A DNA stretch of 64,000 nt. Origin: an uncultured Thermoleophilia bacterium (GTDB taxonomy: Bacteria > Actinomycetota > Thermoleophilia > UBA2241). Shown here in pieces: positions 7,594 to 58,375 of the stretch (position 1 is its first letter; each line of letters opens with the position of its first letter). Made by a program: the position numbers and the translations under genes. The stretch lies in the NCBI GenBank assembly GCA_963751215.1, contig CAVVTV010000024.1, positions 1,052,178 to 1,116,177 on the forward strand, written 5' to 3'. The notes beneath the pieces are model-generated. The model saw nothing but the letters and a program-made list of their open reading frames with translations. It was not told the DNA's origin and searched no databases.

Positions 7594-7659
7594 CCCGCTC
7601 TCCTTGGAGTCGCTGCGCCTGGGTCTTGCGGTGCGCGTCGAGGAGTACCTCGCCGCCGC

Positions 7660-10600: not shown

Positions 10601-11034
10601 CCTTCGACCGCGCGCTTGACCATCCTCACGGTGAGACCCCCGTCTGGAGGCGTGTGCAGGCGCAGATCGTCCATCATTCGCGACATCATGAAGAGGCCCC
10701 GTCCGCCCATACTCATAGGGTCGGGCGCCGCCTCGGGGTCAAAAGAGGCGACGTCAAAGCCCCGGCCTCTATCCTTCACCTCGACAATCAGAGTCGCGCC
10801 GTTGATCCCGAGCGAGACCCGCATCTCCTCATCGGACCCCGAGTGAGTGATGACGTTGGCGCAGGCCTCGTCAACGCAGAGAAGCACGTCATCGACGAGA
10901 CCGTCCCCGGCGCAGTGCATGCGCAGGTAGTCGCGAATGCGCTCCCGGGCGCGCAGCAGCAACGCCGGGTCGGGGGCCAGGCGAAAGCGCAGGGACGGTG
11001 GTGAGATCTCAGGGAGGTGACTTGGTGCTGACAC
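7660..11034 (-). CDS. multidomain signalling protein: N-terminal RsbW/SpoIIAB-like HATPase (anti-sigma Ser kinase) - PAS x3 with coiled-coil - GAF x2 - C-terminal PP2C (SpoIIE/RsbU-type) phosphatase
   Basis: 1124-aa ORF with GTG start. N-terminus LRMHCAGDGLVDDVLLCVDEACANVITHSG...GRGLFMMSRMMDDL...GGLTVRMVKRA (HATPase_c of anti-sigma kinases). PAS-like segments, EELRTQGEELRSQGEELQAQ coiled coil, two GAF domains. C-terminus GDFSEV...VLIGDVAGKGIKAAG...YASAGHPAP...YTDGVTEAR (PP2C). Confidence 0.85.
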   Translation of the reverse strand: MSAPSHLPEISPPSLRFRLAPDPALLLRARERIRDYLRMHCAGDGLVDDVLLCVDEACANVITHSGSDEEMRVSLGINGATLIVEVKDRGRGFDVASFDPEAAPDPMSMGGRGLFMMSRMMDDLRLHTPPDGGLTVRMVKRAVEGCPVGSLESGLAVVAGTPQSTHREIRMRALLEEIDEAFLALDWQYRYVYANSAALKMTGTSLAELLGRTPWEVFPELVDTPLAAHYRDAMELGQPSIFEHRSVVDRDWYEVRIYPTAAGVSAYYRQINERKYVERELANSHMRLATILGTISDAFFTLDRRWRLTFVNDRAAAYFQRTKEELLGRSFLALFPDMAGSIFELSKRKAMEEGRTAAFEAYYEPLGLWVEERDYPSPDGVTVLFSDVTERKQAEFEHQQALEELRTQGEELRSQGEELQAQALEIESSNAGLAASRGAYQRLFTEMTSGFAVHEIVSDSEGRPVDYRFLEVNRAFEELIGLRANDLIGHTAREVLPSREPLWIEVCGNVAQTGRQATFDHYSIALDRHYEVVAYTPSPGKFATIFNDVTARLRAEEGLRLRADLAEALNAIDNLVHSKLDLDVIMQRGLEEGVRALSVDTGAIEMREESCWVVSYQTGFSPGDVGLRLSDLEAPNATRAAAILEPFAIADMAADPSLDVGFVHIHAVRSVLAVPLVARGSAMGCLLLYGKTPRNFEDAEIDFARKLGATVSLALENARLLARETEAARLATALNEINRLINSTLDTKAIMQTVVERAVAVVEADSVMVALKHGDDWVAEYGYPEVPGVIHESVSTDEVPFVVTAVTERRPIAIDDCEADPRCFPDVQARFGVRSVLCIPLIVREEVLGVVFFNRHAAATRFERRTVEFAGQLASAMSSALENARLYEEQQRIATTLQESFKHPLPGVPGIELGIVSQTAYEPELIGGDFSEVFELADGRIAVLIGDVAGKGIKAAGHTETVRSTVRAFAAVNPSPAFVLANTSDVLLRYDSEEPHVTAFMVVLDPRTGHMLYASAGHPAPVHVTPSACRQLGVMFGPPLGSFPSNYREEHLWLSLDDYLLFYTDGVTEARRGSRQYGEKRLANLACRLRGLSAQEFADGVRTAALEFAGSLKDDLQVVCLRLA

Positions 11035-11083
11035 ATGACCTCGCAGGCAAGATGACCAGAGCGCGAGCCCCGCGGGAACTGTT

Positions 11084-14000
11084 CTACCCAGCAGCCTGCT
11101 GCCTCAGCCTCTCGTTGTCGACGGCCAGGGCAACCAAGGCGGCGATCTTGGCGGCGAAGTCGATTTGCGCCTCGGAGAAGGCCATCGAGATAACCTTCCA
11201 ATTGAACAGCAACACGCCGACCACGCTGCCGGCAACCACGAGTGGGGCAGCGAGCACCGAGCTCAGCCCCAGTGTCTTCAGCACCTTCGCAGAGACGCCC
11301 TCTGGGCTACTGCCCAGGCTTATCGCCACCGGCAAGCGCGTCTCCGCGGCCAGCACCGCATGCGGAAACTCGGCATCGGAGAAACGAGCTCCTGCGGCGC
11401 TGGGCGGCAGGTTGTGGCTGTGGCGCGCGACCCAAACCGCATCCTCGCGAACGGCGACCGTGGCGGAGTCGGCGCCCAGCGTGGCGCTGGCCTCCTGCAG
11501 CAGCCCGGGCAGAGCGGCAGCCGGCGTCTGGTTTGCGGCAAAGCCGGCGAGAACGCGGTTCACACTCTCGTTCATCGTCAAGGAGATCTGGATCTGCTCC
11601 AGGCTGCGATGCAGCTCGTCGATGTCGAGGAAGGTGAGCACAGCGCCGTCAACGCGCCTCTCTGCCGTCTGGAAGGGCCGCACCCGCAGGGTGTACCAGC
11701 GCCCGGCGGCGTCTCGCACCTCGCGCACCACCGTCGTCGCGTTCTCGATCACCTCGCCGAGAAGCTCTCGCAGGTCGGGGACGACCAGGCCGCTCGAGAT
11801 GTCGGTGACGGGCCGCCCCACGTCTGTGGCGATCAGGTTGAGCACCGCCTCGGTACCCGGCGTGAAGCGCCGAATGGTGAGATCGCGGCCGACGATCACT
11901 GTGGGTACACTCATGGCGCGCAGCAGGTTGCTGACGTCGTCGTAGGCGCCCGCCAGCTGCTGGTTGCGGCTCACGAGCTCCTCGTTGACGGTGCGCAGCT
12001 CCTCGTTTGTTGACTGCAGCTCCTCCTTGGCGGTCTCGAGCTCTTCGTTGATGCTCTGCAACTCCTCGTTTGTAGACTGGATCTCCTCGTTGGCGGCGCG
12101 CAGCTCCTCGTTACTCTTCTCTCGCTGCTGAATGACCGACTGCAGGTAGACCTGGGTAGAGGCACGCTCGCGTCTGAGGGCGAGGATCTCCTGCCTTTCC
12201 GCACCGCTTGGCGGGCTCGTCTCCGGCGAGGCTTCGATCGCCTCCCGGTGAGGCGTCATGAAGAGCACCAGCACGTGCTCTTGATCGGGCGGTCCGGCGA
12301 GCGGCACGGCCTCCAGGTCGACCATCTGACCGGCCTCGGTACCGTGCACGGCGACGCCGGCTTCGCTCTGCGCGCTGGCCTCATGGCGCACGCGCTCGAC
12401 GAGCTCGCGCAGGGGTGCCGAGAGGCCTTCGCGAGCCATGGCGAGCAGGTTGAGCGTAGCGCGCCCAGCGGCATGCTGCAGGTAGGGGTCCGTGTCGCCG
12501 AAGAACTGCACGATCTCAAGGCGGTGATCGACCACTACGGCCGGTGGCGTGAAGTCGGTGAGCAGGGTGTGGGCGGCCGCCTCGAGCGGGTCGGGGTATG
12601 CCACGGAACCCGGCTCGCCGATCGGCTCCACTCGGGGCTCACCGCGATGCTCGAGGATCGCCGGGAAGGGGTAGGCGAACTCGATCGGCAGGCGCGGTGG
12701 CACGTCGTTCTTGACGAAGATCTTGTTGCGATTGTCGATCACGGTGAAGAGATCTCCGGCGGCGCCGAGCGATTCTGAGAGCCCCAGCATGAGGAAGGCG
12801 CCGGGCAGCAGGGCGTAGTGCAACATCGGTAGCACGCGCTCCTGTAACACGCGGCCGAGGTAGATGAGCACGTTGCGACAGACGATCAGGTCGAGCCGTG
12901 AAAAGGGCGGGTCGCGAGTGACGTCGTGGCGGGCGAAGACGCACATGTCGCGAATAGCTCGGTCGATCTGGTAAGCACCGTCGGTGCGCGTCAAGAAGCG
13001 CTCGCGCAGGTCGGCGGGTATGGACGCCACGCGGCTCTCCGGGTACTCTCCCGCCCGCGCCAGCGCCAGCTCACGTTCGTTGATGTCGGTAGCAAGGATC
13101 TTGATGGGGAACCGGTTTCCGGCTCCCTGCATGGCCTCGGCCAGCACCATGGCGAGGCTGTAGGGCTCCTCGCCGGCGGCGCAGCCGGGCACCCAAACGC
13201 GCACCTCGCGGCCGGGATCGCGACCGGCAAGAAGAGCAGGCAAGACGTGCTCTTTGAGACCCTCGTAGGTCTCTGGCTCGCGGAAGAAGTCGGTCACCAT
13301 CACCAGAATGTCGTGATAGAGCTCGTCGAGCTCACCGCGGTCGACGGCGATGAGATTGGCATACGCATGGCGCGAGTCGAGGCGCTGCAGGACCATACGC
13401 CGTTCGATGCGCCGGCTGACCGTGCCGCTCTTGTAGCCCGCGAAGTCGACGCCAAAAGCCTCGCGCAGGGCGATGAGGATGCGCGTCGTGTCGTCGTCCG
13501 TGCGGGCCGTCGGGGCTGATTTCTTGCCAGCGGACTCGCTCACATAGGGGTGTCCGCCGAGGCGCACGAGCTCCCCGGCGATCTGCCCGGGCGCCAGCAC
13601 CTTGTCGGCGACACGGGCGTGGATCGCGCTCGAGGGCATGCCGTCGAAGCGTGCGGTAGCCGGGTCCTGGGCGAAGGCGATGCCGCCTGCGCCTTTGACG
13701 GCAGCGAGGCCCAGCGTGCCGTCGGTGCCCACGCCCGAAAGCACTACGCCGATCGCCCTTTCCCCGAGGTCTTGCGCGAGCGATTTGAGGAACTGATCGA
13801 TGACCAGATGCCGGGCGCTGGGTTCAAGGCGCTCCAGCAGATCGAGGTGGCCATGGTATATCACCATGTCGACGCCGGGCGGGATGACGTAGACATGATC
13901 GGGTTGCACGGCCATGCGGTTCTCGACCTTGACGACCGGCATGGCCGTGTGCCGAGCGAGAAGCTCGGGCAGGATGCTGCTGTGCTGCGGCGCCAGATGC

Positions 14001-17669: not shown

Positions 17670-18782
17670 TCAGCCGCCCACACGCTGCAGGAAACGCTCG
17701 CGCCGCTCCCTGGGCCAACGCACGCAGTACGCGGGCTTCTGGGCGACGATGCGCTTGCTACACAAGCTGCACCCGGGCGCACACACGGTGATGGGCTCGC
17801 TGATCTGCCCGCGCGCCTTCTTGGGCCACTGCGGGTCGGCAAAGACGATGCGCCCCAGCCCGACCAGGTCGGCAGCGCCATCGCTCAGGACGGTCCGCGC
17901 CGTCTCCGGCCGTTGGATGCGCCCGGCAGCGATGACGGGCATCGCCGGGAGCCCCTGTTTGATGGCGGCCGCAAACGGCACCATGAAAGCCTCACGACGG
18001 TCGTCCTTGGCGTACTCGGACGAGGAGTCGTAGCACCCGGCCATGACGGAGAGGTAGGTCGCACCGGCGCGCGCCAACTCCAGGGCGAACAGGCGCGTCT
18101 CATCCAGCGTGATGCCACCCGGGACGTACTCATCCGCGAGGAAGCGATACCCTACCGGGAACCCGTCGCCCACCGCCGAACGTACGGCTGCGAACACTTC
18201 GAGTGGGAAGCGCATCCGACCCGCGAGCTCGCCGCCGTAGCCGTCGTGGCGCAGATTGGTGCGCGCCGAGAGGAATTGCGTCAGGAGGTAGCCCATGCCG
18301 CCGTGCAACTCCACCGCGTCGAATCCCGCCTCTTGCGCCCGCCTCGCCGCGGCCGCGAAGGCGCGGACGACCCGGTCGATGTCGGCCTGGTCCATGACCT
18401 TCGGTGTAGCTCCCCAGGCCTCCACGGCCGAGGGCGCGATGCGGTCGGCGCGCTTTGCGTACCTTCCGGCGTGATGGATCTGCAGCACAGCCGGCACGCC
18501 GCGCGCCTTGATGGCCTTCGCCAAACGCGCCAACCCCGGAACGAAGCGATCCTCGGAGACGAGGAGGGTGCGCGGGTTGGTGAGGCCGCGCGGCTCGACG
18601 GTGGCGTTCTCTACAACCACCATCCCCGGCCCCGAGTCAGCCATCTCGGAGTAGTAGTCGAGCACGAGACTGTTCACCTCGTGGTCGGGGTCCGGATACG
18701 CGAGGTACATGGGCAGGCAGACGATGCGATTCGCGAGGGTCAGGGTCCCGAGACGGAACGGCGAAAATAGAGGGTCCGGCAT
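17670..18782 (-). CDS. Old Yellow Enzyme family NADH:flavin oxidoreductase with C-terminal Cys cluster (CAPGCSLC...YC)
   Basis: ORF 17670..18986 trimmed to ATG 18782 (AAGGAGTG RBS). FSPFRLGTLTLANRIV, LQIHHAGRY, VELHGGMGYLLTQFLS are OYE/2,4-dienoyl-CoA-reductase N-domain motifs. Confidence 0.8.
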   Translation of the reverse strand: MPDPLFSPFRLGTLTLANRIVCLPMYLAYPDPDHEVNSLVLDYYSEMADSGPGMVVVENATVEPRGLTNPRTLLVSEDRFVPGLARLAKAIKARGVPAVLQIHHAGRYAKRADRIAPSAVEAWGATPKVMDQADIDRVVRAFAAAARRAQEAGFDAVELHGGMGYLLTQFLSARTNLRHDGYGGELAGRMRFPLEVFAAVRSAVGDGFPVGYRFLADEYVPGGITLDETRLFALELARAGATYLSVMAGCYDSSSEYAKDDRREAFMVPFAAAIKQGLPAMPVIAAGRIQRPETARTVLSDGAADLVGLGRIVFADPQWPKKARGQISEPITVCAPGCSLCSKRIVAQKPAYCVRWPRERRERFLQRVGG

Positions 18783-19261
18783 GAACAGTTCACTCCTTGC
18801 CCAAACGACGACGGCGTGGTCACCGCCGACTGATTGTGACCGTATCGTGGTTTGTACTTCCGGCATGATGGTTGCACCATTTCTTGCTCGGGTACAGCCG
18901 GCGCTCCCCACCTGGGCGACCGCCGACGACGTCACCGCTTGAGTCGCCGCCAACGCTCTCATGGGCGTGCACTGGGCTTTGGTCAATCACGTCCGCCGGC
19001 GGGTGCTGGCCGGCACACCTGACCCAAGCGTCGCCCGCGAGGTCCGCTCGCGTGCGCAGCGCGCTCATACTGATCGAGCGAGGGCTTGGCGACTATGCAC
19101 TCAAAGCACGCTGAGCAGGCACTCGCCGTCGCACGCGCTTGAGCCGGAGCCAACGCCTCTCGCGTGATGCTAACCGTACGCGGGCACAATCCGACGATCG
19201 ATGAACCAGGATCGTCCCACAGAGCACGCTGGAAGCAGTAACGGCTGAGCGGCGGGTGCCG

Positions 19262-20440
19262 ATGAGCGAGGCACACGGCGAGCGGGTCTCACTCGCCACG
19301 ATCGCGCGTGAATGGCTGCGCATCGGCGTCACCGGCTTCGGCGGCCCGCCGGCGCATATTGCTCTCCTGAGCAGCCTCGCCGTGAGGCGGCGCGGCTGGC
19401 TTACCGAACGCGAGTTCGAGGAGGGCGTCGCCGCCACCAACCTGCTGCCGGGACCGGCCTCGACGCAGCTCGCGATCTTCATCGCCTGGCGCCTGCGGGG
19501 CGCAGTTGGTGGCATCCTCGCCGGGGTCTGCTTCATCGTCCCCGGCCTCGCCCTCATCCTGGCCCTCGCGACGCTCTTCCTTGCCGCGCACCCGCCGCTC
19601 TGGACCGAAGGAGCCGCTGCAGGAGCCGGTGCCGCCGTGCCGGCCGTCGCCGTGCAGGCGGCCCTGGGCCTGGCGCCGGCGAGCTGGCGGCGGGCGGGCG
19701 CTTCCCGGGCCGCGCAGACGCGCTGGCTGCTCTACCTGCTCGCCGGCGTCGCGGCGTCTGCGGGCCTTGGACCGTACCTGGTCCTCGTGCTGTTCGCCTG
19801 CGGCGCAGTCGAGGTCGCGACCCTGCGCCCGGGCCGCTGTGCTGTGGGCGGACGGACGAGGGTCCTCCTCGCCGTGCCGCTCGCCCTCACCGGCAGCGCC
19901 GTCGGTGGCCTCGCGGCCCTCGTCTGGGTGGCCTTCAAGGTGGGGGCGCTCTCCTACGGCGGCGGCTTTGTGATCATCCCCCTGATGCAGCACGATGCGG
20001 TCAGCACCTACCACTGGATGAGCGCCGCTCAGTTCCTCAACGCCGTCGCCCTGGGCCAGATTACGCCGGGCCCTGTGGTGCAGACGGTCGCGGTGGTCGG
20101 TTACGCCGCTGCCGGGCTCGCCGGCGGCCTGCTCGCGGCGCTCGTCGCCTTCGCCCCATCGTTCCTCTTCGTCATCGTCGGCGGGCCCCGCTTCGGGCGC
20201 CTGCGCACCAGCACCCGGGCGCAAGCCTTCCTGACCGGCGCCGGCGCGGCGGCCATCGGCGCGATCATGGGGGCTGCCATCCCCCTGGCGCTGGCGCTCT
20301 CCCACCTCTGGCAGCTTGGCGTGCTCGCGCTCGCGGCGGCCTGGCTGCTACGACTGCGCCGGGGCGTCGTCCCGGCGCTCCTCGGGGCGGCGCTGCTCGG
20401 CGTCGTCGCGGCACTCTTGGGTGCACCAATTGGCCACTGA
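19262..20440 (+). CDS. chrA: chromate ion transporter ChrA (two CHR domains)
   Basis: ORF 19256..20440. ATG 19262. GVTGFGGPPAHIAL and GALSYGGGFVIIPLM CHR-domain motifs, polytopic. Confidence 0.85.
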   Translation: MSEAHGERVSLATIAREWLRIGVTGFGGPPAHIALLSSLAVRRRGWLTEREFEEGVAATNLLPGPASTQLAIFIAWRLRGAVGGILAGVCFIVPGLALILALATLFLAAHPPLWTEGAAAGAGAAVPAVAVQAALGLAPASWRRAGASRAAQTRWLLYLLAGVAASAGLGPYLVLVLFACGAVEVATLRPGRCAVGGRTRVLLAVPLALTGSAVGGLAALVWVAFKVGALSYGGGFVIIPLMQHDAVSTYHWMSAAQFLNAVALGQITPGPVVQTVAVVGYAAAGLAGGLLAALVAFAPSFLFVIVGGPRFGRLRTSTRAQAFLTGAGAAAIGAIMGAAIPLALALSHLWQLGVLALAAAWLLRLRRGVVPALLGAALLGVVAALLGAPIGH

Positions 20441-20553
20441 GCCTTGGGCAACGGTATGCCGATGCCCCGAGTCGGTGCCCATGGGCAGCGCCCCCAAAGG
20501 CGAAACCGACAGCTACCAAGCAGGAAGTTCTGGTCGGTGGCGGATCGAGCCTC

Positions 20554-21483
20554 TCATTGCTGCTCCCTTTCCTGCATGCGCCGACGGCTTAGGCGCTGCC
20601 GGCAGGCAGCGCTGCAGGTCTTCTGGTCGGTGCGGCAGCGGGGCACAAAGGGCTTGCCGCAGCTCTCGCAGGAGTTCATCTGCCAGATGCCCGAGAGCTG
20701 CTCGGCAAGCATCATGTAGAAGGCGCCGAGCAGCGACTCGACTCTCACTCTGCGGCCGAGTGCCTCGCTTACGTGGGAGGAGGTGTGCTCGCTCAAACGC
20801 CTGTTGATCTCACCATAGAGGTAGTGCTCAAGGGGGGCGATGTAGCGCCCAATGTCGCTCGTTGAGGCGCTCCAGTCCCTTAACTTGTCGTAGGCAACGG
20901 CAGGCGCGGCCTGCGAGATCGTAACGTGGGCGTCCTCATGGGTTCCCGGCCAGCGGTAGACGAGCTTGACGCCACGCAGGCCATCCTGCCAGTGCACGTA
21001 GCGCCTTGCCACGTTCGTATCTTTGCGCTTGCAGATCTGGACTAGCTCGAGCAAGCCGCCCACAGAGCTGATCGCCTGCCCCCAGCCGAACAGGTGCTCG
21101 GCCATATAGACGCCTGCATCTCGTCCATCATCGTCGGCGAGCCAACTCCTGACTGCTCCTTGCGCCCAGCCGAGGGTGCCGTAACGCGAAGCGAAGGCGG
21201 CCAAGACACCGAGGCTCTCCCGGTCGTTGCCGAGCGGCAGGCCGGCGAACTCCACGTGCAGGTTGCGATTCCAGCGCAGAGGCTCGTACACGCGAGCCGC
21301 AAAGTGTGCCCCCACGGGCACCGGCGGCACCAGCCAGGGACCCTGGGGAGCCACTCTCGTCCAAGAGGGCTGCTCCTCTCGGCCTGGTCTGCAGAGCTTG
21401 TACTCGGTGCTCCAGTGGTAGCCATCGTCGGCGACCAGCCAGCGCAGGCGCATGCACGAGTCGTCCATGAGCGACCTTGGCAT
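20554..21483 (-). CDS. hypothetical protein with C-terminal CxxC...C-x3-C zinc ribbon
   Basis: ORF 20554..21513 trimmed to ATG 21483 (MPRSLMDDS) with GGGAGAAGAGG RBS. C-terminus CESCGKPFVPRCRTDQKTCSAACRQRL. The conserved operator module lies 25-55 bp upstream. Confidence 0.5.
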   Translation of the reverse strand: MPRSLMDDSCMRLRWLVADDGYHWSTEYKLCRPGREEQPSWTRVAPQGPWLVPPVPVGAHFAARVYEPLRWNRNLHVEFAGLPLGNDRESLGVLAAFASRYGTLGWAQGAVRSWLADDDGRDAGVYMAEHLFGWGQAISSVGGLLELVQICKRKDTNVARRYVHWQDGLRGVKLVYRWPGTHEDAHVTISQAAPAVAYDKLRDWSASTSDIGRYIAPLEHYLYGEINRRLSEHTSSHVSEALGRRVRVESLLGAFYMMLAEQLSGIWQMNSCESCGKPFVPRCRTDQKTCSAACRQRLSRRRMQEREQQ

Positions 21484-21536
21484 CCTCTTCTCCCGGACAC
21501 GCCCCAGACTCACATGTGAGTGTGCACTCTATCACA
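21472..21536 (-). promoter_or_regulatory. promoter/operator module copy 1: identical 30-mer GACTCACATGTGAGTGTGCACTCTATCACA (CRP-like TGTGA-N6-GCACA plus perfect palindrome CTCACATGTGAG) with conserved RBS/start region
   Basis: 66-bp near-identical repeat of 26692..26757. Contains the ATG and RBS of gene 20554..21483. Confidence 0.6.
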
Positions 21537-21691
21537 TGCACGGTAGGCATGACGGGGACGAGGTGCGGAAGGGAGAAGTGCATACAGACGTGCCGATCCT
21601 GTGCTGCGGCGGACCTCGCGCACCACGATTCCGCTAGCCGACCGTCAGCCGGGCTTCCACATCGCCAGATCAGCCACTCTGTGCCTGCTCG

Positions 21692-22004
21692 TTAGTCCCG
21701 GAGCAACCCGCGGAGCGCGTCTATCTCCAAATCGCGCTCGACCAGCATATGCCTGAGACACGCGTTCTCAGACTCCAGCTCGCGCATGTGCTTTACATCG
21801 GCGGTTGTCATTTGACCGTAGCATCGCTTCCAGCGGTAGAACGTCTGCTCGGAGATGCCATGGATGCGGCAGACCTCGACCGCCGTGGTCACGCCCCCGG
21901 CGGTCGCGGCCAGGATATCGACGATTTGTGCCTCGGTGTGCTTCACTGCAGCCCCCAGATGCGAGCAGTTGGGAACACCAAGTTGCCCCCGGTGAGTGGG
22001 TACA
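21692..22004 (-). mobile_element. IS3-family remnant: putative left inverted repeat (TGTACCCACTCACC...) plus solo orfA (HTH/leucine-zipper InsN-like, 84 aa, GTG start ~21946); orfB absent
   Basis: ORF 21692..22105 C-terminal 84 aa: KHTEAQIVDILAATAGGVTTAVEVCRIHGISEQTFYRWKRCYGQMTTADVKHMRELESENACLRHMLVERDLEIDALRGLL, a typical IS3/IS911 OrfA. No transposase catalytic ORF follows before the operator module. Confidence 0.65.
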
Positions 22005-22164
22005 ATCCCACCCCCTTCCGTATGGCTATCATAGCTCACCAGAGGCCGTCGTGCCCGTTTCAAGCAATGTCCGCACGGCTCGCTGATCGTTCGCCAGCTC
22101 ATCACGGATTCGCACGCCCCACGGTCGCGTCACGGCGACCCGTTGGTTGCAGAGACCGGCCGCC

Positions 22165-22830
22165 ACCCCCTAGTATCGTTCGCCGCGGTAGCCGGCTTCG
22201 GTGGCGCGCTGGAACCAGCGCTCAGCTTCGTCGAGCTCACCCAACTGCTCCAGTAGCAGGCCGAGGTCGAACATCGCATCTGCTTCGCCTGCCTCGGCGG
22301 CCTGCCGATACCACTCTTTGGCCTGCTCGGGCTGGCCCTGTTCCTTCAGCAGGGCGCCGAGGTTGAACATGGCGTGGGCGTCGCCCGCCTCGGCGGCCAG
22401 GCGATACCACTCTTTGGCCTCGCCGATGTCGCCGCGCAGGTAGAGGAGCGCGCCCAGGTTGAACATCGCGCGCACGTCGCCTGCCTCGGCGGCCAGGCGA
22501 TACCAGTGGTCGGCGCCCTCGATGTCGCCGCGCAGGTAGAGGAGCGCGCCCAGGTTGAACATCGCGCGCACGTCGCCTGCCTCGGCGGCCAGGCGATACC
22601 AGTGGTCGGCGCCCTCGATGTCGCCGCGCAGGTACAGCAGGTGGCCGAGGTCGCACCGCGCCTCGGTATCGCCTGCCTCGGCCGCCTGCCGATACCAGCG
22701 CTCAGCGCCCGTGGTGTCGCCCTGCTCTCTGAGCAGCCGGCCGAGGTCGCGCATCGCCTGGGTATCGCCCGCCTCGGCCGCCTCCCCAAGCCTTTCTGCT
22801 TCGTCGGACATGTGGTGCTGCTCCCCTTGT
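22165..22830. repeat. 0.66-kb direct repeat, copy A (about 95% identical to 27143..27808)
   Basis: Contains whole Sel1 gene A plus its start region. Identity breaks about 20 bp upstream of the ATG and at ctagtatcg just past the stop. Confidence 0.8.
22170..22811 (-). CDS. Sel1-like/TPR repeat protein, copy A (213 aa)
   Basis: ORF 22170..22868 trimmed to ATG 22811 (MSDEAERLGE). Repeated 36-aa units EWYRLAAEAGDxxAMFNLGALL. Internal 108-bp tandem units are nearly identical at DNA level. Confidence 0.8.
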   Translation of the reverse strand: MSDEAERLGEAAEAGDTQAMRDLGRLLREQGDTTGAERWYRQAAEAGDTEARCDLGHLLYLRGDIEGADHWYRLAAEAGDVRAMFNLGALLYLRGDIEGADHWYRLAAEAGDVRAMFNLGALLYLRGDIGEAKEWYRLAAEAGDAHAMFNLGALLKEQGQPEQAKEWYRQAAEAGEADAMFDLGLLLEQLGELDEAERWFQRATEAGYRGERY

Positions 22831-23051
22831 GCTCTTCCGGGCACGCCCAGTTCTTGTACGCCGCACACGAATGACGTGCTCAGACGCGATCACGTCGCGA
22901 TCGGCTATCCATTCCCACCCCGCGACTTCTTCATACTGGCAGCTCGAATTGCGGCACGCCGACCGGTGAGGTGTGCGGCCGAACGAGGAATGCGTCTTGA
23001 CCGAGCGTGTCCTCAGAGCCGGCGGTGTGCCTGGCTCCGTCTTGGACCGGG

Positions 23052-23525
23052 CTACGAGCGAAGGCGGTAGAGACTCAGGGTGGAAGGAGCGGCGATCGGC
23101 CAAGACTGCGCAGCTACGACCTGACCGCCGACAGCCACCTTGCTCAGATGCTCGCTGGGCAGCGACATGGCTTCGATCTCATCGAGATTGCCAGCCTTCA
23201 TCTCGCGCGCAATGTTCTGCGCCACGCACTGAACAACGCTGTGCGCGCGATTTGATCCGCGTTCGCCAGCCGGGAAATCGAGAGCCTCCACGACGTCCGG
23301 GTATCTCTTGTAGAGCGCCGTGGCGATCTGAAACGCAGTGAGAAACGGGCGGCCCTGGTGATCGCCCCCAGCCACGCGCACATCCCCAAGAATCGTCAAG
23401 ATCTTGGCGACCAAGTCATGCTCCACCCAGCTATTCACGTGCCACTCCAAACCCAGTACGCGCCCCCGCTTTGGCGCCAAATGGCACCACCAGGTGCACG
23501 GCGCAGGCGCCAGCGTCAACGGCAA
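23052..23525 (-). CDS. hypothetical protein (lower-GC segment)
   Basis: TTG-started track ORF with no family match. GC3 only about 60% versus about 88% elsewhere. Local GC near 52% in places. Preceded upstream by hairpin 23544..23574. Confidence 0.3.
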   Translation of the reverse strand: MPLTLAPAPCTWWCHLAPKRGRVLGLEWHVNSWVEHDLVAKILTILGDVRVAGGDHQGRPFLTAFQIATALYKRYPDVVEALDFPAGERGSNRAHSVVQCVAQNIAREMKAGNLDEIEAMSLPSEHLSKVAVGGQVVAAQSWPIAAPSTLSLYRLRS

Positions 23526-23543
23526 CCATCGTGTGCGGGGAGA

Positions 23544-23574
23544 GGGGCGGGCGGCTCATTGAGCCGCCCGCCCC
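23544..23574 (-). terminator. 14-bp perfect stem hairpin GGGGCGGGCGGCTC-att-GAGCCGCCCGCCCC downstream of the CXXCH-protein gene
   Basis: Read directly, 52 nt after the stop at 23626. Confidence 0.6.
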
Positions 23575-23625
23575 CGCCTCGCCTGCCCCGCTCCGATTGC
23601 GCCGGAGCGCGGGATCAGACGACGC

Positions 23626-24777
23626 TCAGTTGACCTTGAACGACTTCCACAAGGTCGCTGCCGAGCCGAAGAGTGTGGTCTTCGCGACCGACGTCTTCAC
23701 ACGGTAGCTGCCCGTCTTCGTCGGCTTGTAGGTGTAGCTGTAGGCGCCGCTGGTAGCGTTGATGGTGCGCGCCGCCGTCTTCACGTTGACCCACTTCTTG
23801 CCGACCTTGCGCTGGATCGTGACCGTCGCCGTGCCACTGCGCGCCGGCTTCACGGCGCCCTTGACGGTCATCTTCTTGCCGAGTTTCAGTGCCCCGGCCT
23901 TGAGGCCGGTGAGCTTGATGGTTACGCTGCTCTTCTGCAGCGCACTCGTGAACGTCACGGCGAGCGTGTGATTCGCGGTGACGTTATCAAAGGTGTAGTA
24001 GTCGCCGAAGATCGCCTGCACTGCAGCACCATCGGCGAGCAGTGTGCCGATCTTGTAGCCGGCGTCCGGCACGATCAAGCAGGTGACTGTGCCCCCGGAA
24101 GTCACGGTCCAGGGCCCGACCGGGGAGATCTTGCCATGAGCGCCCGCGGTAGCCGTGATCGTGAAGCTCGGGTTGGCGGCAAACGTGGCCGAGATAGTTT
24201 CGTTGGCAGTGACGTTCGTGAACGTGTACGAGCTGACAGCGCCGACAGACGTGCCGTTGACCTTCACGTCGGCGATGGAGTAGCCGGCGTTGGCGGTGAT
24301 GGTGAACGTGACGCTGCCGCCTGACGCCACGCTCTGCGCGGTCGTGGGCGTGATCGATCCGTTCGCACCGGCGGTCGGTGTGACCGTGAAGTTGCCCGTC
24401 CCACCTGTCGACGTAACGTCGGTTTCGCTGATGGGACCTGGGGAGCCGGACACGGAGAAGACCTTGAACGTGTCCCCCGCGGTACCAGTAAACGTGCCAC
24501 CCGAGGTCGTATCGCCGGCGATCCGGGTGGCGCCGTCGAAGGCCGCCCAAGCGGATCCGACCTGTGTGACGCTATACGTCGCAGTGGTACCGTTGTTGCT
24601 TACGAGCGTGACGACGGGGGCCGCGAGGCCGGATCCAGAGTGACACGCGCTGCATATTTGGGTTTCGTCCGGCGTTGCATAGGCACTCGTAGCCAGTACG
24701 GTGAAAAGGGCAGCGACGGCTAGCAACGCCACCGCGAAACTTGCCGATCTCCTCATGTGCCAGGACTCCTTTTTCAT
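23626..24777 (-). CDS. secreted CXXCH (monoheme c-type cytochrome-like) protein with Ig-like/Listeria-Bacteroides-type repeat domains
   Basis: ORF 23626..24861 trimmed to ATG 24777 (GGAGG RBS). Signal peptide MKKESWHMRRSASFAVALLAVAALFTVLATSAYA, then ETQICSACHSG (CXXCH). Repeats TFTNVTANETISATF / YTFDNVTANHTLAVTF. Lys-rich Ig-like C-terminus. Confidence 0.65.
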   Translation of the reverse strand: MKKESWHMRRSASFAVALLAVAALFTVLATSAYATPDETQICSACHSGSGLAAPVVTLVSNNGTTATYSVTQVGSAWAAFDGATRIAGDTTSGGTFTGTAGDTFKVFSVSGSPGPISETDVTSTGGTGNFTVTPTAGANGSITPTTAQSVASGGSVTFTITANAGYSIADVKVNGTSVGAVSSYTFTNVTANETISATFAANPSFTITATAGAHGKISPVGPWTVTSGGTVTCLIVPDAGYKIGTLLADGAAVQAIFGDYYTFDNVTANHTLAVTFTSALQKSSVTIKLTGLKAGALKLGKKMTVKGAVKPARSGTATVTIQRKVGKKWVNVKTAARTINATSGAYSYTYKPTKTGSYRVKTSVAKTTLFGSAATLWKSFKVN

Positions 24778-24818
24778 GGGTGCAGAACCTCCGTCGACTC
24801 GCTCACGATTCCAGAGAC

Positions 24819-26603
24819 TCATTTGACTGCCGGCACATTCTTCGCGGCGTTCATGCCGCAAAGGCGAGCGGCGGTCACGTAGTGGGCCAACGTGTTGTGA
24901 CCCCGGCGATAGCCGACGATATCGCCGGACTCGCCCGCGACGTACAGATGGGGGATCGTCGTCAACTGGTCGATCGACTGCGGCGCGGCATCGCCCTGCT
25001 CGGCCTCGATCACCTGCATCTTGGTGTTGACGCGGAGCCCATTGCGCTGCGTGTGCCGGATCAAGCTCAGCTTCGCACCGTAGAACGGCCCTGTGAGGAT
25101 CTTGCCCTTTGGCGACGGCTTGCCGAAGTCGGCATCCGTGCCGGAGTCGACGAAGCCATTGTAGCGAGTGATGGTGGCCTGCAGATTGGCCGCGTTCACG
25201 CCCATCTTGGCCGCCAGGCCCGCGATCGTGTCGTCGATGGCGAGGCAGGTCGGATCGAGCTGAATCCCACTCTTGGGATCGGGGTTCTGCATCGTGCTAA
25301 TGGGCCACCCCAGAGTGGCAGCGGTGGTCGAGTCCGCGATCATCCACACGTTGCGCGGCTGCGGCAGTGCCAGGTAGGACGTGGTCCACGTCATCTCGGG
25401 GTTCTCGGAGTAGGAGCCTCGTCCCGCAGGGATCGCGTCGAAGCGCGTGGACTCGTTGACGTAACGTTGGCCGTTGTTCGCCACACAGATGGTGCTCTGG
25501 AACGTGGCGGCACTCTGGGTCAGACCCTTGCCGGCGGCATAGTTCGTGTTCGTCGTCCAGTCGATCGGGTCGTGTCCCCAGCCCCAGTACGAGCGGCCAC
25601 CGAAGAAGGTATAGAGGTAGGAAGTGAACGACATATCGGCAAGTCCAGCCCCGATGTCGGCACACGCCCTTTGACCATCGCCGGCGCTGTCGATGTAGAG
25701 CGTCCCGTCGATCGGCGTCCCGCCATCTCCGTAGCAGTCAGGCCCGACTGTCCGCGGGTCCCACTGCTGCATCATGGTCTGGTTGTCGGTCCACGTACCG
25801 GCGGCGACAACGACACCCTTGCGGGCTCTGATGTTCATGAGCCCCTTAGGCCCACGCGCCTGAATGCCGACCACGACGCCGTTCCTGTCCCGGTACAGCT
25901 TCAGCATCCGCGTGTTCAGAAGGATGGGCGTGCCCTGCTTCTGCACCTTCTTCCACATGACCCAGCTGAAGGAGATACCGGTGTTCGGCGTGCCCGACCC
26001 GCCGGGATAGACACCCGGGTTCTGCAGGGCGGTAATGCCACGCCAGATCGGCGGACGCAAGACACCTGCGGACAGCGGCGCATACTTGATGCCGAGATCC
26101 TGGAACCACTTGACTGTGTCCGCACCATTGGCCACCAGCGTGCGCACGATCTCCGGCTGTGCACGGTACTGGCTGGTGTACATCTCGTCCTCGAACCACT
26201 GCTCGTCGTTGTCAACGACGCCGGCAGCCTGCTGCACGACGTTGTTGCCACCCATCGTGAAGCTGCCACCAGCGGTCATGTACAGCCCGCCGACGTGGTC
26301 AGCCTTCTCGACGATGAGCGCGCTGGCGCCGAGGTTCTTGGCCTCAATCGCGGCGGCGAGCCCGCAACCGGTGCCGACCACGACCACGTCGACGGTCCGC
26401 TGCCACTTGCTGGGCAGCTTTGACGACTGTGCCGACTCGGCCAGCGCGGCAGGCACTCCGAGGAAGCCTCGCGAGCCTACGCCAACAACCGCTGCTCCCA
26501 CGGCAGCCCCAGCGAGGAACTTCCGCCGGGTAAAGCCCTTCTTCACGCCATCGTCGTCAGCGACTTCCATCTGACGTTCGTCCTTCTCGTCAATGTCATC
26601 CAT
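24819..26603 (-). CDS. Tat-exported FAD-dependent oxidoreductase (fumarate reductase/succinate dehydrogenase flavoprotein-like, KstD/flavocytochrome flavin-domain-like)
   Basis: ATG 26603. Twin-arginine signal TRRKFLAGAAVGAAVVGVG. Dinucleotide-binding VDVVVVGTGCGLAAAIEA. C-terminus HLYVAGESGD typical of the FRD/SDH flavoprotein superfamily. 41-bp gap to the CXXCH gene. Confidence 0.85.
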   Translation of the reverse strand: MDDIDEKDERQMEVADDDGVKKGFTRRKFLAGAAVGAAVVGVGSRGFLGVPAALAESAQSSKLPSKWQRTVDVVVVGTGCGLAAAIEAKNLGASALIVEKADHVGGLYMTAGGSFTMGGNNVVQQAAGVVDNDEQWFEDEMYTSQYRAQPEIVRTLVANGADTVKWFQDLGIKYAPLSAGVLRPPIWRGITALQNPGVYPGGSGTPNTGISFSWVMWKKVQKQGTPILLNTRMLKLYRDRNGVVVGIQARGPKGLMNIRARKGVVVAAGTWTDNQTMMQQWDPRTVGPDCYGDGGTPIDGTLYIDSAGDGQRACADIGAGLADMSFTSYLYTFFGGRSYWGWGHDPIDWTTNTNYAAGKGLTQSAATFQSTICVANNGQRYVNESTRFDAIPAGRGSYSENPEMTWTTSYLALPQPRNVWMIADSTTAATLGWPISTMQNPDPKSGIQLDPTCLAIDDTIAGLAAKMGVNAANLQATITRYNGFVDSGTDADFGKPSPKGKILTGPFYGAKLSLIRHTQRNGLRVNTKMQVIEAEQGDAAPQSIDQLTTIPHLYVAGESGDIVGYRRGHNTLAHYVTAARLCGMNAAKNVPAVK

Positions 26604-26691
26604 CGAACACGACTCCCCTCATCCATTGGTCTGACAGCTGCAGACGCGCCACGAACGAATAACCTCCTCGAACGGACTTGCCTAGTCGATC

Positions 26692-26757
26692 GACCTTGGC
26701 ATCCTCTCCCTCCACGGAGACATCCCGGACTCACATGTGAGTGTGCACTCTATCACA
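26692..26757 (-). promoter_or_regulatory. promoter/operator module copy 2 (same 30-mer palindrome); carries a decayed 6-codon start MPRSID* of a paralog of gene 20554..21483
   Basis: Near-identical to 21472..21536. About 125 bp upstream of the FAD-oxidoreductase ATG. Confidence 0.6.
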
Positions 26758-26928
26758 ACCACCCCCACAGCCGCACACAAGAAGACATCTGAATTCACGA
26801 TTCTTCACATCGGACACCGCGCGCTGGGGCGTCCGCAGGCCTAGCGTCGTGGGTACGCCTCTTTCGCTGCAGTCCTGTCGCGGCCACCTACCGACTGCCA
26901 AGACCGGCCGTCAGGCGGGGTCGTTCGC

Positions 26929-27147
26929 CGCGCTAACCGCTTCGGTGGCGTGCTGTAGGGCGGCGGCGGCGGCGAGGGCGCTCTTCGCCGCGCAGCCGGC
27001 GTAGTTGGCGCAGGAGAGCAGGGTGCCGTCGACGAGGCGCACGCTGCCGGCCGCGACGAGCTCGGCGACGGCCAGCTGCACGCGCGTGATCTGCGGTGTC
27101 AGGCGACGCAGGCGGCGGTTGAACTGCGACTGCCCGGGCGGGAGCTT
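26929..27147 (-). pseudogene. orphan C-terminal gene fragment (about 72 aa, no start), unknown origin, possibly mobile-element derived
   Basis: Minus-frame ...SQFNRRLRRLTPQITRVQLAVAELVAAGSVRLVDGTLLSCANYAGCAAKSALAAAAALQHATEAVSAANDPA* with about 93% GC3, so it is a coding frame. It abuts the stop of Sel1 copy B with no upstream start. Confidence 0.4.
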
Positions 27148-27808
27148 CTAGTATCGCTCGCCGCGGTAGCCGGCTTCGGTGGCGCGCTGGAACCAGCGCT
27201 CAGCTTCGTCGAGCTCACCCAACTGCTCCAGTAGCAGGCCGAGGTCGAACATCGCATCTGCTTCGCCTGCCTCGGCGGCCTGCCGATACCACTCTTTGGC
27301 CTGCTCGGGCTGGCCCTGTTCCTTCAGCAGGGCGCCGAGGTTGAACATGGCGTGGGCGTCGCCCGCCTCGGCGGCCAGGCGATACCACTCTTTGGCCTCG
27401 CCGATGTCGCCGCGCAGGTAGAGGAGCGCGCCCAGGTTGAACATCGCGCGCACGTCGCCTGCCTCGGCGGCCAGGCGATACCAGTGGTCGGCGCCTTCGA
27501 TGTCGCCACGCAGGTAGAGGAGCGCGCCCAGGTTGAACATCGCGCGCACGTCGCCTGCCTCGGCGGCCAGGCGATACCAGTGGTCGGCCTCGTCGAGCTC
27601 ACCCTGCTCCTTGAGCAGCTGGCCGAGGTCGCACCGCGCCTCGGTATCGCCTGCCTCGGCCGCCTGCCGATACCAGCGCTCAGCGCCCGTGGTGTCGCCC
27701 TGCTCTCTGAGCAGCCGGCCGAGGTCGCGCATCGCCTGGGTATCGCCCGCCTCGGCCGCCTCCCCAAGCCTTTCTGCTTCGTCGGTCATGTGGTGCTGCT
27801 CCCTTTTT
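27143..27808. repeat. 0.66-kb direct repeat, copy B
   Basis: See copy A. Same orientation, about 5 kb apart. Confidence 0.8.
27148..27789 (-). CDS. Sel1-like/TPR repeat protein, copy B (213 aa)
   Basis: ORF 27148..28149 trimmed to ATG 27789 (MTDEAERLGE). About 93% identical to copy A, differing mainly in one repeat (QLLKEQGELDEADHWY versus HLLYLRGDIEGADHWY). Confidence 0.8.
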   Translation of the reverse strand: MTDEAERLGEAAEAGDTQAMRDLGRLLREQGDTTGAERWYRQAAEAGDTEARCDLGQLLKEQGELDEADHWYRLAAEAGDVRAMFNLGALLYLRGDIEGADHWYRLAAEAGDVRAMFNLGALLYLRGDIGEAKEWYRLAAEAGDAHAMFNLGALLKEQGQPEQAKEWYRQAAEAGEADAMFDLGLLLEQLGELDEAERWFQRATEAGYRGERY

Positions 27809-28252
27809 CGTAGGCACCATTGGTGCTGTCGTGTGCCGGCCGCCGTCATCCTGGTCCGGTGAGTCAATGTACGCTTGAGACTAACGTCGGGCAACCGGTC
27901 CTGGACGACCCTGTGCTCGCGGCCGGACGGAAGCGACGACCTCGAGCAGAGATCAGCCGAGCGCGGGCATGCCGCCCCAACCCACAGGCCCGCGGGCCCA
28001 CTCGCGCGGAGCCCCGGGAACTCGTTGTCACGGTCCACGAGGGCTTGCCACGCTTTCCGGGAAGGCCATGCGTCGGCCTCGAAGCGAGCCTGGCTCGCTG
28101 CGCGCCGGGTCCTCCGGCGGAAGAACGCAGCTCCCGCTATGCCACGCATGCCAGGCTGACCGCGAGCGCTCCTGGGTTGACGGTCTCCTCCGCATCAACC
28201 ACGATGGCGGTCAGGTCTTCCGGACTGACTGCTATGCAACGGAGGTAAGAGG

Positions 28253-28495
28253 ATGTTCAGCGGCGCGCTTCAACCCATGCACGTGCTAATCGTGGTCGTC
28301 ATCGTGCTGCTACTCTTCGGCGCCAAGCGGCTGCCCGAGCTGGGCCGCTCGATGGGAACTGGCATTCGCGAGTTCAAGAAGGGTGTCTCCGAATTACACG
28401 CAGACGTATCCGACGAGCAGCCGGGAGGCGCCGCTGCCGGGCCAACTGCCCCCGTCAAGGTAGAGAGCGTTGCCTCTCAGAGCGAGGCTGAGTAG
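28253..28495 (+). CDS. tatA: twin-arginine translocase subunit TatA/E
   Basis: LLLFGAKRLPELGRSMGTGIREFKKG with N-terminal TM. GGAGGTAAGAGG RBS. Confidence 0.85.
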   Translation: MFSGALQPMHVLIVVVIVLLLFGAKRLPELGRSMGTGIREFKKGVSELHADVSDEQPGGAAAGPTAPVKVESVASQSEAE

Positions 28496-56585: not shown

Positions 56586-56806
56586 TCGACTCCAGCGACA
56601 GTCCAGACGGCCATGCGGCCGTTTCACCCTCTCGGCCGACAAGCGCTGCGGTTCCTGCTAGCAGAACGACCCCCGATGTGCAATATTAGTGGGGACCCCC
56701 GGCACGCCGCCGTCTCGTCGAGATGCACCACGCCGCGGCGTCTGGCCGAAGTCAGGAAGCACCTTGCGGCACGCGACCGGCCAGTCCAGCACCACGAAGC
56801 CAGCAG

Positions 56807-58375
56807 ATGGCGGCTGAAGGTCGCCACTCCACCGGCGGCCCGGGGCAGACAGGTCTCGCGCCGCGGATCCTTTTGATCGAGGACAATCCCGGCGATGCGC
56901 GCCTCGTACGGGAGCTCCTCGCCGAGGCCAACCCGGGTTTCGAGTTGCACTGGGTGCAGCAGCTCGCGGCCGGCCTTGCGTACCTCGCCGAGGGCGATCA
57001 GATCGCCGCCGTGCTGCTCGACCTCTCACTACCCGATAGCCAGGGATTGGCGACCTTCGAACGCCTGCACGCCGCAGCCCTCGAGGTGCCCATCATCATG
57101 CTCACCGGCCTAGCCGACGAGGAACTCGCCCTGCAGGCCCTGCGCGGCGGTGCCGCTGACTACCTGACCAAGGACGACATCAGCGGGGCGCTGCTCGTGC
57201 GCGCGGTGCGCTACGCGGTCGAGCGCCGCCAGAGCAACGAGGTGCTGCGGCTCAGCGAGGAGAAGCTGCGTCTCGCTATGGAGGCGAGCGAGTCGGGCAT
57301 CCTCGACCTCGACGTCCCCACCCGCCAGATGACCTCGAGCGCCGACTGCCAGGCGATGCTCGGCCAGCCGTCGGTCGAGGTGAGCGGCCCACTCGAAGAG
57401 ATCTGGGCCGCCTACATCCACCCCGAGGACCGCGCGGCCAGCTTGCAGGCGCTCGAGGAGACGATCGCGGGACGCTCTCCCTACTTCGAGCGCGAGCACC
57501 GCCTGCGCACCACGCGTGGCGGTTGGGCCTGGGTGTACGACAAGGGCAAAGTGGTCGAGCGCAACGCCCAAGGCGCCGCGCTTCGCCTGCTCTCCACCTG
57601 CACGAACATCACGACGCGCAAGAAGGCAGAGGAAGATGCCGTCACCACGGCCACCCTGCTTGCCGAGCAGCGCCGCATCGCCACCACCCTGCAGGAGAGC
57701 TTCAAGCACCCGCTGCCGGACGTGGCCGGCATCGAGCTCGGCGTGGTCTCACAGACGGCCTACGAGCCCGAGCTCATCGGCGGCGACTTCAGCGAGGTCT
57801 TCGAGCTCCCCGACGGGCGGATCGTCGTCCTCATCGGCGACGTGGCCGGCAAGGGAATCAAAGCGGCGGGGCTCACCGAGACGGTGCGCAGCATGGTGCG
57901 CGCCTTCTCCGCCATCGATCCCTCACCGGCCTTCGTCCTTGCGAAGACCAATGAGGTCTTGTTGCGCTACGACCCCGAGGAGCCCCACGTCACGGCCTTC
58001 CTGGCCGTGCTCGACCCGCAGAGCGGACATCTGAGCTACGCGAGCGCCGGCCACCCCGCCCCACTGCACCTGAGTCCCTTCTCCTGTCGCCCGCTCGGCG
58101 TCGGCTTCGGCTCGCCGCTGCACAGCTTCCCGGGCCCATACCAGGAGGAGCACCTCAGGCTCTCGCTAGACGACTACCTGCTGCTCTACACTGACGGCGT
58201 CACCGAGGCACGCCGCGGCGAGGAGGAGTTCGGTGAGGAGCGGCTGATCGAAGTGGCCAGGCGGCTGCGTGGCGCTTCCGCCCAGGAGGTCGCCGAGGGC
58301 GTGCGCGCCGCGGCGCTCGAGTTCGCCGGCAGCCTGAGAGACGACCTGCAAGTTGTGTGCCTGAGGCTCGCCTAG
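56807..58375 (+). CDS. response-regulator receiver (REC) - PAS - PP2C (SpoIIE/RsbU-type) phosphatase
   Basis: ORF 56723..58375 trimmed to first ATG. RILLIEDNPGDARLV...DLSLPDSQG (REC, Asp pocket). PAS. PP2C about 80% identical to the C-terminus of 7660..11034, with the same terminal DDLQVVCLRLA. Confidence 0.8.
   Translation: MAAEGRHSTGGPGQTGLAPRILLIEDNPGDARLVRELLAEANPGFELHWVQQLAAGLAYLAEGDQIAAVLLDLSLPDSQGLATFERLHAAALEVPIIMLTGLADEELALQALRGGAADYLTKDDISGALLVRAVRYAVERRQSNEVLRLSEEKLRLAMEASESGILDLDVPTRQMTSSADCQAMLGQPSVEVSGPLEEIWAAYIHPEDRAASLQALEETIAGRSPYFEREHRLRTTRGGWAWVYDKGKVVERNAQGAALRLLSTCTNITTRKKAEEDAVTTATLLAEQRRIATTLQESFKHPLPDVAGIELGVVSQTAYEPELIGGDFSEVFELPDGRIVVLIGDVAGKGIKAAGLTETVRSMVRAFSAIDPSPAFVLAKTNEVLLRYDPEEPHVTAFLAVLDPQSGHLSYASAGHPAPLHLSPFSCRPLGVGFGSPLHSFPGPYQEEHLRLSLDDYLLLYTDGVTEARRGEEEFGEERLIEVARRLRGASAQEVAEGVRAAALEFAGSLRDDLQVVCLRLA

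Follow-up and report, generated by a model that had tools for sequence, protein, structure and literature searches.

In Actinobacteria and Firmicutes, the NADH/NAD+-sensing repressor Rex binds the 18-bp Rex operator (ROP), which follows the pattern TTGTGAA-N4-TTCACAA (PMC5355995; PMC2883068). Its consensus is TTGTGAANNNNTTCACAA, adjacent half-sites occur, and the footprinted Streptomyces sites include TTGTGCACGCGTTCACAA and TTGTGATACGGTTCACGA (PMC5355995). The consensus of GlxR sites is TGTGA-N6-TCACA (PMC7999487). Here we describe a module built around a dyad of this kind, which stands twice in a stretch of 64,000 nucleotides (hereafter the window) from an uncultured Thermoleophilia bacterium (assembly GCA_963751215.1, contig CAVVTV010000024.1, positions 1,052,178 to 1,116,177). 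One copy (copy 2) precedes an operon that begins with the gene for a flavin adenine dinucleotide (FAD)-binding flavoprotein (the FAD gene) predicted to be exported by twin-arginine translocation (Tat), and the other (copy 1) carries the start codon of another gene, called X. Two broader kinds of system bear comparison with this locus. Promoter capture, or regulatory rewiring in which a duplicated segment is fused in frame to the 5' end of another gene, is a general phenomenon, and integrative elements and satellites carry repressor-integrase modules such as the int-stl / str-xis-pri-rep layout of the Staphylococcus aureus pathogenicity islands (SaPI). The explanation that we prefer, and consider probable while leaving considerable room for doubt, is that the control region of the FAD leader was partly duplicated onto gene X and that its dyad is switched by a dimeric repressor.

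The two copies share an exact 30-mer, GACTCACATGTGAGTGTGCACTCTATCACA, at 21507-21536 and 26728-26757. Allowing up to three mismatches brought no further match in the window, and none of 100 shuffles matched. When the window was aligned with itself by BLAST, the repeat extended over 70 columns with 88.6% identity, including a 2-nt indel, and the original prediction of an identical 30-mer inside a longer repeat was therefore borne out. The predicted AT-richness also held (47% G+C in the 30-mer), against a background of about 67% G+C and not the 70% that had been given. Both copies face minus-strand genes, and on that strand the module reads TGTGA-TAGAGT-GCACA-C-TCACA-TGTGAGT (after GCACA-C: TCACATGTGAGT), followed by a short untranslated region (UTR), a ribosome-binding site (RBS) and ATG. 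The dyad TGTGA-TAGAGT-GCACA agrees with TGTGA-N6-TCACA at nine of ten positions. The palindrome ACTCACATGTGAGT, previously described as 12 bp long, is perfect as claimed and measures 14 bp; it consists of the third and fifth TCACA/TGTGA pentamers joined tail to tail. Copy 1 holds, as predicted, the RBS (CCGGGAGAAGAGG) and ATG (21483-21481) of the open reading frame (ORF) at 20554-21483. In copy 2, the six-codon ORF MPRSID* (26702-26682) is followed by 78 nt and then by the ATG of the FAD gene (26603), which lies 125 nt from the end of the 30-mer.

Both copies are also present in the strain of locus L004, which is 96-97% identical to the window; the duplication is therefore older than the split of these two strains. 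A core of about 30 nt (TGTGATAGAGTGCACACTCACATGTGAGTC) is unchanged in all four copies, and the eight differences between copies 1 and 2 are all confined to the stretch that separates the core from the RBS. With uniform placement assumed, the probability of sparing the 30-nt core is P = 0.011, and that of sparing both the core and the RBS/ATG block is P = 0.0002. Such a distribution would be expected if the core is under selection in each of the two copies; short-tract gene conversion could also have produced it.

Comparison of FAD loci from six lineages (the window with L004, L018, L019, L017, L024 with L025, and L026) established, at the level of sequence, the module as the conserved, putatively promoter-proximal control region and 5' leader of a tetratricopeptide repeat (TPR) / Tat-flavoprotein / CxxCH locus of uncultured Actinomycetota. 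In L018 (79% amino acid identity of the FAD protein), the stop codon of the TPR gene is followed by 38 nt, TTGTGATAGTGCGCACACTCACATGTGAGTG, GGAGGATGCCAACGTCGATCGAT and then the FAD gene. The module reads TGTGATTGTGTGCACGCTCACATG in L019 (76% identity), TTGTGATGGTATGCACAATCACAA in L017 (69%), CATGTGATAATGTTCACACGCATATGTGAGTC in L024/L025 (71%), where it includes the perfect TGTGA-N6-TCACA core TGTGATAATGTTCACA, and TTGTGATAATGTCCACAC in L026 (71%), with the core TGTGATAATGTCCACA. All six lineages retained TGTGA-N6-(G/T/C)CACA around or overlapping a -10-like hexamer. In an alignment of seven sequences, TGTGAT and CAC were invariant and the whole leader of about 190 nt aligned down to the ATG of the FAD gene; copy 1 could be aligned only up to ATGCCAAGGTCGCTC. 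The gene order is shared as well, with a TPR gene upstream of the module in L018 and L024 and the second operon gene after the FAD gene in L004, L018, L024 and L026. Conservation of the 14-bp palindrome is narrower; the full sequence is limited to the window, L004 and L018, and L024 has one half. A wider dyad, TGTGA-N12-TCACA, was rejected as the real site: it occurs in four lineages and is missing from L024 and L026, and N6 is the conserved geometry.

The position of the module upstream of orthologous FAD genes bears directly on whether it could be the end of an insertion sequence (IS), a miniature inverted-repeat transposable element or another dispersed repeat. The idea draws on an IS3-type orfA 155 nt from copy 1 and a coding-like fragment in the spacer before copy 2. 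We give it next to no credence, as no copy beyond the two was found in the 64 kb, neither terminal inverted repeats nor target duplications are present, and the exact core had no match in 185,579 species genomes and the JGI metagenome collection (scanned with a 21-mer on genome contigs and with a 24-mer containing N4 on metagenome contigs). The description of the module as a gene-proximal, promoter/operator-like element stands.

The direction of the capture is another matter. The original prediction held that the module was the native promoter/operator of the X family, that an X paralogue had decayed to the six-codon stub in copy 2, and that the FAD operon had captured the promoter left behind. 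This view can point to the X ATG and codons 2-5 lying inside the repeat, to a BLAST alignment of X between L001 and the window that runs past the ATG to 21488, and to the relatives of X, which have a TAnnGT -10 element about 42-50 nt before the start codon, followed by short repeats. Local alignment against shuffles nevertheless gave z = 17 (L018), 8-10 (L019) and 4-5 (L017) for the module against FAD leaders, and z < 1.1 against nine upstream/5' regions of the X family. In addition, X and the module are linked only in the strain pair of the window and L004, and the stub continues as leader DNA or as a 17-codon ORF at the FAD loci of four lineages, where no X sequence is seen. We therefore regard an X-native module as unlikely. 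Because the module resembles FAD leaders and not the regions upstream of X-family genes, it is most likely X that captured the control region of the operon, and because the stub continues as orthologous leader DNA in the relatives, copy 2 most likely represents the ancestral site and copy 1 the derived one. The orphan X would thus have taken the promoter, operator, RBS and first five codons of the operon leader. The duplication claimed earlier is real; the direction proposed for it was most likely the reverse.

The small ORF in the leader supports the same orthology. At the position of MPRSID*, L024 encodes MPTPINHASASEHVVRS and L026 MPTPIDHVDASEHVVRS, both ORFs of 17 codons, and codon 7 is TAG in the window where these two relatives have CAC. 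Beyond this TAG, the leader DNA is still about 72% identical to that of L024 (counted by eye on the alignment). The L018 leader encodes MPTSIDHVSWGVLPNG* (starting MPTSIDHV..), which overlaps the ATG of the FAD gene. As judged from these alignments, MPRSID* represents the first codons of the leader ORF of orthologous FAD operons, which a stop codon shortens in the window, and not the relic of an X paralogue; the peptide and the 125-nt distance agree with the earlier description of copy 2. An RNA-level module (leader hairpin, attenuator, riboswitch or control by the upstream ORF, uORF) could be suspected from the conservation of the leader over about 190 nt, from the strong Shine-Dalgarno sequence of the 17-codon ORF in L024 and L026, and from the overlap in L018. 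We consider it extremely unlikely, however. Intact in L024/L025 and L026, the uORF is altered in L018, broken by the stop codon in the window and missing from L017, and in L019 its ATG is replaced by CTG. The folding energy of module plus leader was no better than that of shuffles (z = +0.6 to +1.1), no Rfam match was obtained at E <= 1, and the loop-free 14-bp palindrome would be unable to form a useful hairpin.

In our reading, the TPR gene was duplicated locally, as were the first ~70 nt of the control region, in the same event or in another. The copied segment comprises the core, the 5' UTR, the RBS and the ATG with four leader codons, and it is joined in frame to X. The join lies at about 21469, adjoining Met6 of X, which aligns with Val10 (GTG) of the closest relative. 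X would be all that is left of the genes of a decayed integrative element, now under borrowed signals, and its transcription, translation and regulation would all depend on those copied from the operon. As in promoter capture generally, the copied promoter, operator, RBS and start codon would give the recipient the regulation of the donor; particular to this case are the recipient, an orphaned integrative-element gene, the donor, the leader of a chromosomal operon, and the junction five codons into a leader uORF. The TPR genes form a second, larger repeat (22170-22825 and 27148-27803), 97% identical over 656 nt and including the whole TPR/Sel1 gene. TPR gene and module stand in the same order and orientation in both places, about 5 kb apart. 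Both TPR/Sel1 genes (22170-22811 and 27148-27789) contain internal repeats of 96 nt (32 amino acids) that are 62-82% identical to each other and could promote gene conversion between the two copies.

Gene X belongs to a small family. It had no match in Pfam or NCBIfam, its profile found nothing among the PDB sequences, and only 17 members were present in a collection of 5.8 billion proteins, all from metagenomes or metagenome-assembled genomes of Actinomycetota; none was found in viral contigs. At nine loci, the X-family gene and a tyrosine integrase gene lie on one strand, and an HTH_17 (excisionase-like) gene and a D5-type primase or DUF3631 gene lie on the other. The HTH_17-X spacer measures 75-120 nt, mostly about 82 nt. 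Since integrase, HTH_17 and tRNA genes are all missing from the window, as is any D5 remnant, X appears to be an orphan that such an element left behind when it decayed. In the comparison of the window with L004, pN/pS (nonsynonymous over synonymous polymorphism) was 0.58 for X and 0.16 for the FAD gene, and X of L004 carries a 27-nt tandem duplication (9 amino acids; within 10001-10957 of L004) that is absent from the window; the constraint on X is therefore relaxed. In L004, an IS (DUF4096, IS4/IS5-type; 11030-11927) is inserted just 3' of X and is not found in the window.

The HTH_17-X spacers of L001, L002, L005 and L008-L013 contain a TATGGT or TATAGT -10 element with element-specific repeats flanking or following it, for example GTGTGAC-N5-CGTGAC, CCGTGAC-N4-CCGTGAC, GGATAAGA..TCTTATCC and GGAACGTC..GACGTTCC. 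By their look, these repeats could be operators of the immunity type, and the small actinobacterial integrative elements that carry them appear to form a family not yet described. The likeness to SaPI-type modules lies in two respects: the X-family genes adjoin int, divergent from HTH_17 (Xis/AlpA-like) and a D5-type primase, and element-specific repeats surround the -10 element. Unlike SaPI-type modules, the window keeps only X, its control region appears to have been replaced by the FAD leader, and X has no recognizable helix-turn-helix (HTH). One could still see in the duplicated module the immunity-type operator of a decayed element, bound by X (a zinc ribbon with an ABATE/CGNR-like fold) or by a lost HTH protein. 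X indeed occupies a repressor-like place beside int and divergent from HTH_17 at nine loci, the repeats around the -10 element differ from one X-family element to the next, and the 14-bp palindrome is lineage-specific. We find this highly unlikely, as the FAD leaders to which the module is orthologous stand without element genes in their vicinity and the X-family control regions show no similarity to it; the relaxed constraint on X and the missing element genes speak against it too. In the X-family elements, a C-terminal fragment of the integrase (20-61 amino acids, 89-97% identical) recurs 0.9-2.4 kb downstream of int (L002, 12537-12719; L005, 10931-11011; L007, 10528-10587), which may reflect duplication of the attachment (att) site or insertion of the element at the 3' end of an int gene already in place.

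As to how the dyad works, the -10-like elements associated with it are TAGAGT (both copies, as TG-A-TAGAGT) or TAATGT, and the relatives offer another phase, TG-T followed by GATAAT, GATAGT, GATGGT or GATTGT, with exact extended -10 geometry (a match to the consensus only). In copy 2 also, TGTGAT can be read as an extended -10 element (TGnGATnnT). One or two further TCACA/TGTGA pentamers often follow the dyad. The dyad might be incidental, together with the palindrome, to a core promoter made only of an extended -10 element (TGnGATAAT-like) and a CA start site. Five of the six lineages have TG-T-GAT(A/G/T)(A/G)T in the exact geometry, the invariant CAC stands at the expected start-site position, and inside the window neither the CRP match nor the Rex match exceeds chance expectation. 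We hold this possible but doubtful, because the right half-site varies at its first base only and its symmetric positions are fixed, because additional pentamers flank the site, and because the motif also occurs elsewhere. In the 32.3 kb of the six FAD loci, TGTGA-N6-NCACA gave nine strand-hits at seven distinct sites, against 0.12 expected. At two of the seven, the spacer does not resemble a -10 element, one upstream of tatA in L019 (148-163, perfect TGTGAGCACAATCACA, 64 nt before the gene) and one upstream of the TPR gene in L024 (428-443, TGTGAACGGTCGCACA), and for this reason a transcription-factor motif is favoured over a bare promoter. The extra sites suggest a small regulon.

The most likely mechanism, as far as the arrangement of motifs allows, is therefore a dimeric repressor with TGTGA/TCACA half-sites that would sit on the dyad covering the -10 element and block RNA polymerase; repression is preferred to activation because the dyad encloses the only -10-like hexamer, and a protein bound there would repress if this hexamer is the promoter. 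Candidates are Rex, which senses NADH/NAD+, and a CRP/GlxR-type protein, and the respiratory-type flavoprotein operon would accordingly switch with the redox or the cAMP state. The module has the core TGTGA-N6-TCACA in common with the ROP, and it shares further traits with it: half-site variants TTGTGAT and TGCACAA that are known from footprinted Streptomyces sites (the reverse complement of TTGTGCACGCGTTCACAA has the TGCACAA half-site present in L017), a full site with an adjacent half-site, an overlap with the predicted promoter that implies repression, and a respiratory-type oxidoreductase as presumed target, to which one relative would add tatA. Unlike the ROP, the module has an extra tail-to-tail palindrome, and over the 14 specified positions its sites deviate by three (copy 2), four (copy 1), two (L017), three (L024), four (L018) and five (L019) mismatches. 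Footprinted Streptomyces Rex sites deviate from the consensus to a similar extent (PMC5355995).

With CRP/GlxR sites (PMC7999487), the module shares the same 16-bp dyad (nine of ten positions in the window, ten of ten in L024), conserved across orthologous promoters. Classical CRP activation sites (class I/II) are centred at about -41.5 or -61.5, unlike the module dyad, whose predicted centre is the -10 element. GlxR sites have a central TA in the spacer, which the module spacer does not contain. Rex and CRP/GlxR are equally tenable names for the putative regulator, and the dyad does not separate them because both share the TGTGA-N6-TCACA core; the dyad originally pointed out is the part conserved before orthologous FAD operons in six lineages, and Rex fits it as well as the CRP/GlxR originally named. 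The presumed targets (a flavocytochrome-c/fumarate-reductase-like flavoprotein, a CxxCH protein and tatA) suit a redox regulon. We also considered a domesticated X, co-regulated with the flavoprotein operon and itself binding the lineage-specific 14-bp palindrome ACTCACATGTGAGT beside the older dyad, which would make a new regulator/operator pair on top of a Rex/CRP-type switch; this is decidedly unlikely.

Several observations weigh against our preferred explanation of a captured FAD leader with a repressor-bound dyad. On the side of the operator, TGTGA-N6-TCACA with at most one mismatch occurs in the window only as the two copies, which represent one event, against 0.94 expected, and a Rex-operator match of their quality is expected 0.32 times per window. 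Position 6 is T and not the A of Rex in all the FAD-leader sites, and the FAD lineage L020-23 lacks the motif. A tblastn search of the 64 kb with E. coli CRP and a Pfam search of ten ORFs of 169-254 amino acids found no crp/fnr gene, and a tblastn search with B. subtilis Rex found no rex-like match. There is no conserved -35 element, a simple sigma-70 scan found no promoter in 20400-28400, and an extended -10 promoter with its start site could by itself account for TGTGAT with CA(C). On the side of the duplication, identity is 97% between the TPR copies and only about 70% in the neutral part of the module, and the spacers between TPR gene and module are unrelated in sequence, with IS debris in them; the history must therefore have included at least two steps, or gene conversion. 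Lastly, the first codons of X (MPRS..) are loosely like the N-termini of the X family (P-K/R at the same offset), and L001 DNA is about 54% identical over 24 nt at the X start (our own count). A native origin of these codons thus keeps a small chance.

The claim made here is a modest one, an instance of known mechanisms in which a Rex/CRP-type operator on a respiratory operon would be combined with rewiring by local duplication. It shows how a gene left over from a decayed element may stay expressed by copying the promoter, operator, RBS and start codon of a neighbouring operon. It also defines a conserved, predicted TGTGA-N6-NCACA operator before genes for Tat-exported flavoprotein reductases, tatA and TPR genes of uncultured Actinomycetota, and this motif offers a handle for predicting redox or cAMP control of Tat-flavoprotein operons. 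Neither point changes current concepts.

The features discussed are collected in Table 1. The FAD gene product is flavocytochrome c / fumarate-reductase-like by family annotation only.

Table 1. Positions of the module copies, their sub-elements and the adjoining genes in the window
Feature	Position	Strand	Remarks
Gene X, 309 aa	20554..21483	-	C-terminal CxxC...C..C zinc ribbon; putative orphan integrative-element gene
Module copy 1, probably derived	21469..21536	-	Core, 5' UTR, RBS, ATG and four further codons, in frame with gene X
14-bp palindrome ACTCACATGTGAGT, copy 1	21508..21521	.	Perfect
16-bp dyad TGTGA-TAGAGT-GCACA, copy 1	21521..21536	-	-10-like TAGAGT at 21526-21531
IS3-type orfA remnant (HTH_Tnp_1), between TPR gene A and copy 1	21692..22105	-	Pfam PF01527 6e-14; orfB missing
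TPR/Sel1 gene A, duplicate of gene B	22170..22811	-	97% identical
Second operon gene, secreted or anchored, start codon uncertain	23626..24861	-	One CSACH motif, Flg_new_2 repeats
Tat-exported FAD_binding_2 flavoprotein, 594 aa, first operon gene	24819..26603	-	Pfam PF00890 2e-33; TIGR01813 2e-50; RRKFL Tat motif
Truncated leader uORF MPRSID*, DNA ATGCCAAGGTCGATCGACTAG	26682..26702	-	RBS GGAGGGAGAGG before it (26703-26713)
Module copy 2, probable ancestral position	26688..26757	-	Promoter/operator-like, with first part of the FAD-operon leader
14-bp palindrome ACTCACATGTGAGT, copy 2	26729..26742	.	Perfect
16-bp dyad TGTGA-TAGAGT-GCACA, copy 2	26742..26757	-	Spacer is the -10-like TAGAGT (26747-26752)
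TPR/Sel1 gene B, about 213 aa from MTDEAERL	27148..27789	-	Immediately upstream of module copy 2

Between TPR gene B and copy 2, a stop-free fragment (..QFNRRLRRLTPQI..VRLVDGTLLSCANYAGC.., 26911-27147, minus strand) includes a 36-nt piece resembling the 3' end of the TPR gene (26921-26955, similar to 22176-22211). Its interpretation as a transposase relic was dropped, as it had no Pfam or plasmid match. No intrinsic terminator was found between the TPR gene and the module. Further genes surround the locus, namely tatA (28253-28495, plus strand), upstream of TPR gene B, a chromate transporter gene immediately 3' of X (19256-20440, plus strand) and a gene for an Old-Yellow-Enzyme-type flavin mononucleotide (FMN) oxidoreductase (17670-18986, minus strand). 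Elsewhere in the window, an inverted repeat (7653-8370 and 57665-58381, 80.6% identical over 722 nt) links the 3' parts of the genes at 7660-11034 (minus strand, 1124 amino acids) and 56723-58375 (plus strand, 550 amino acids), and probably corresponds to a common paralogous domain.

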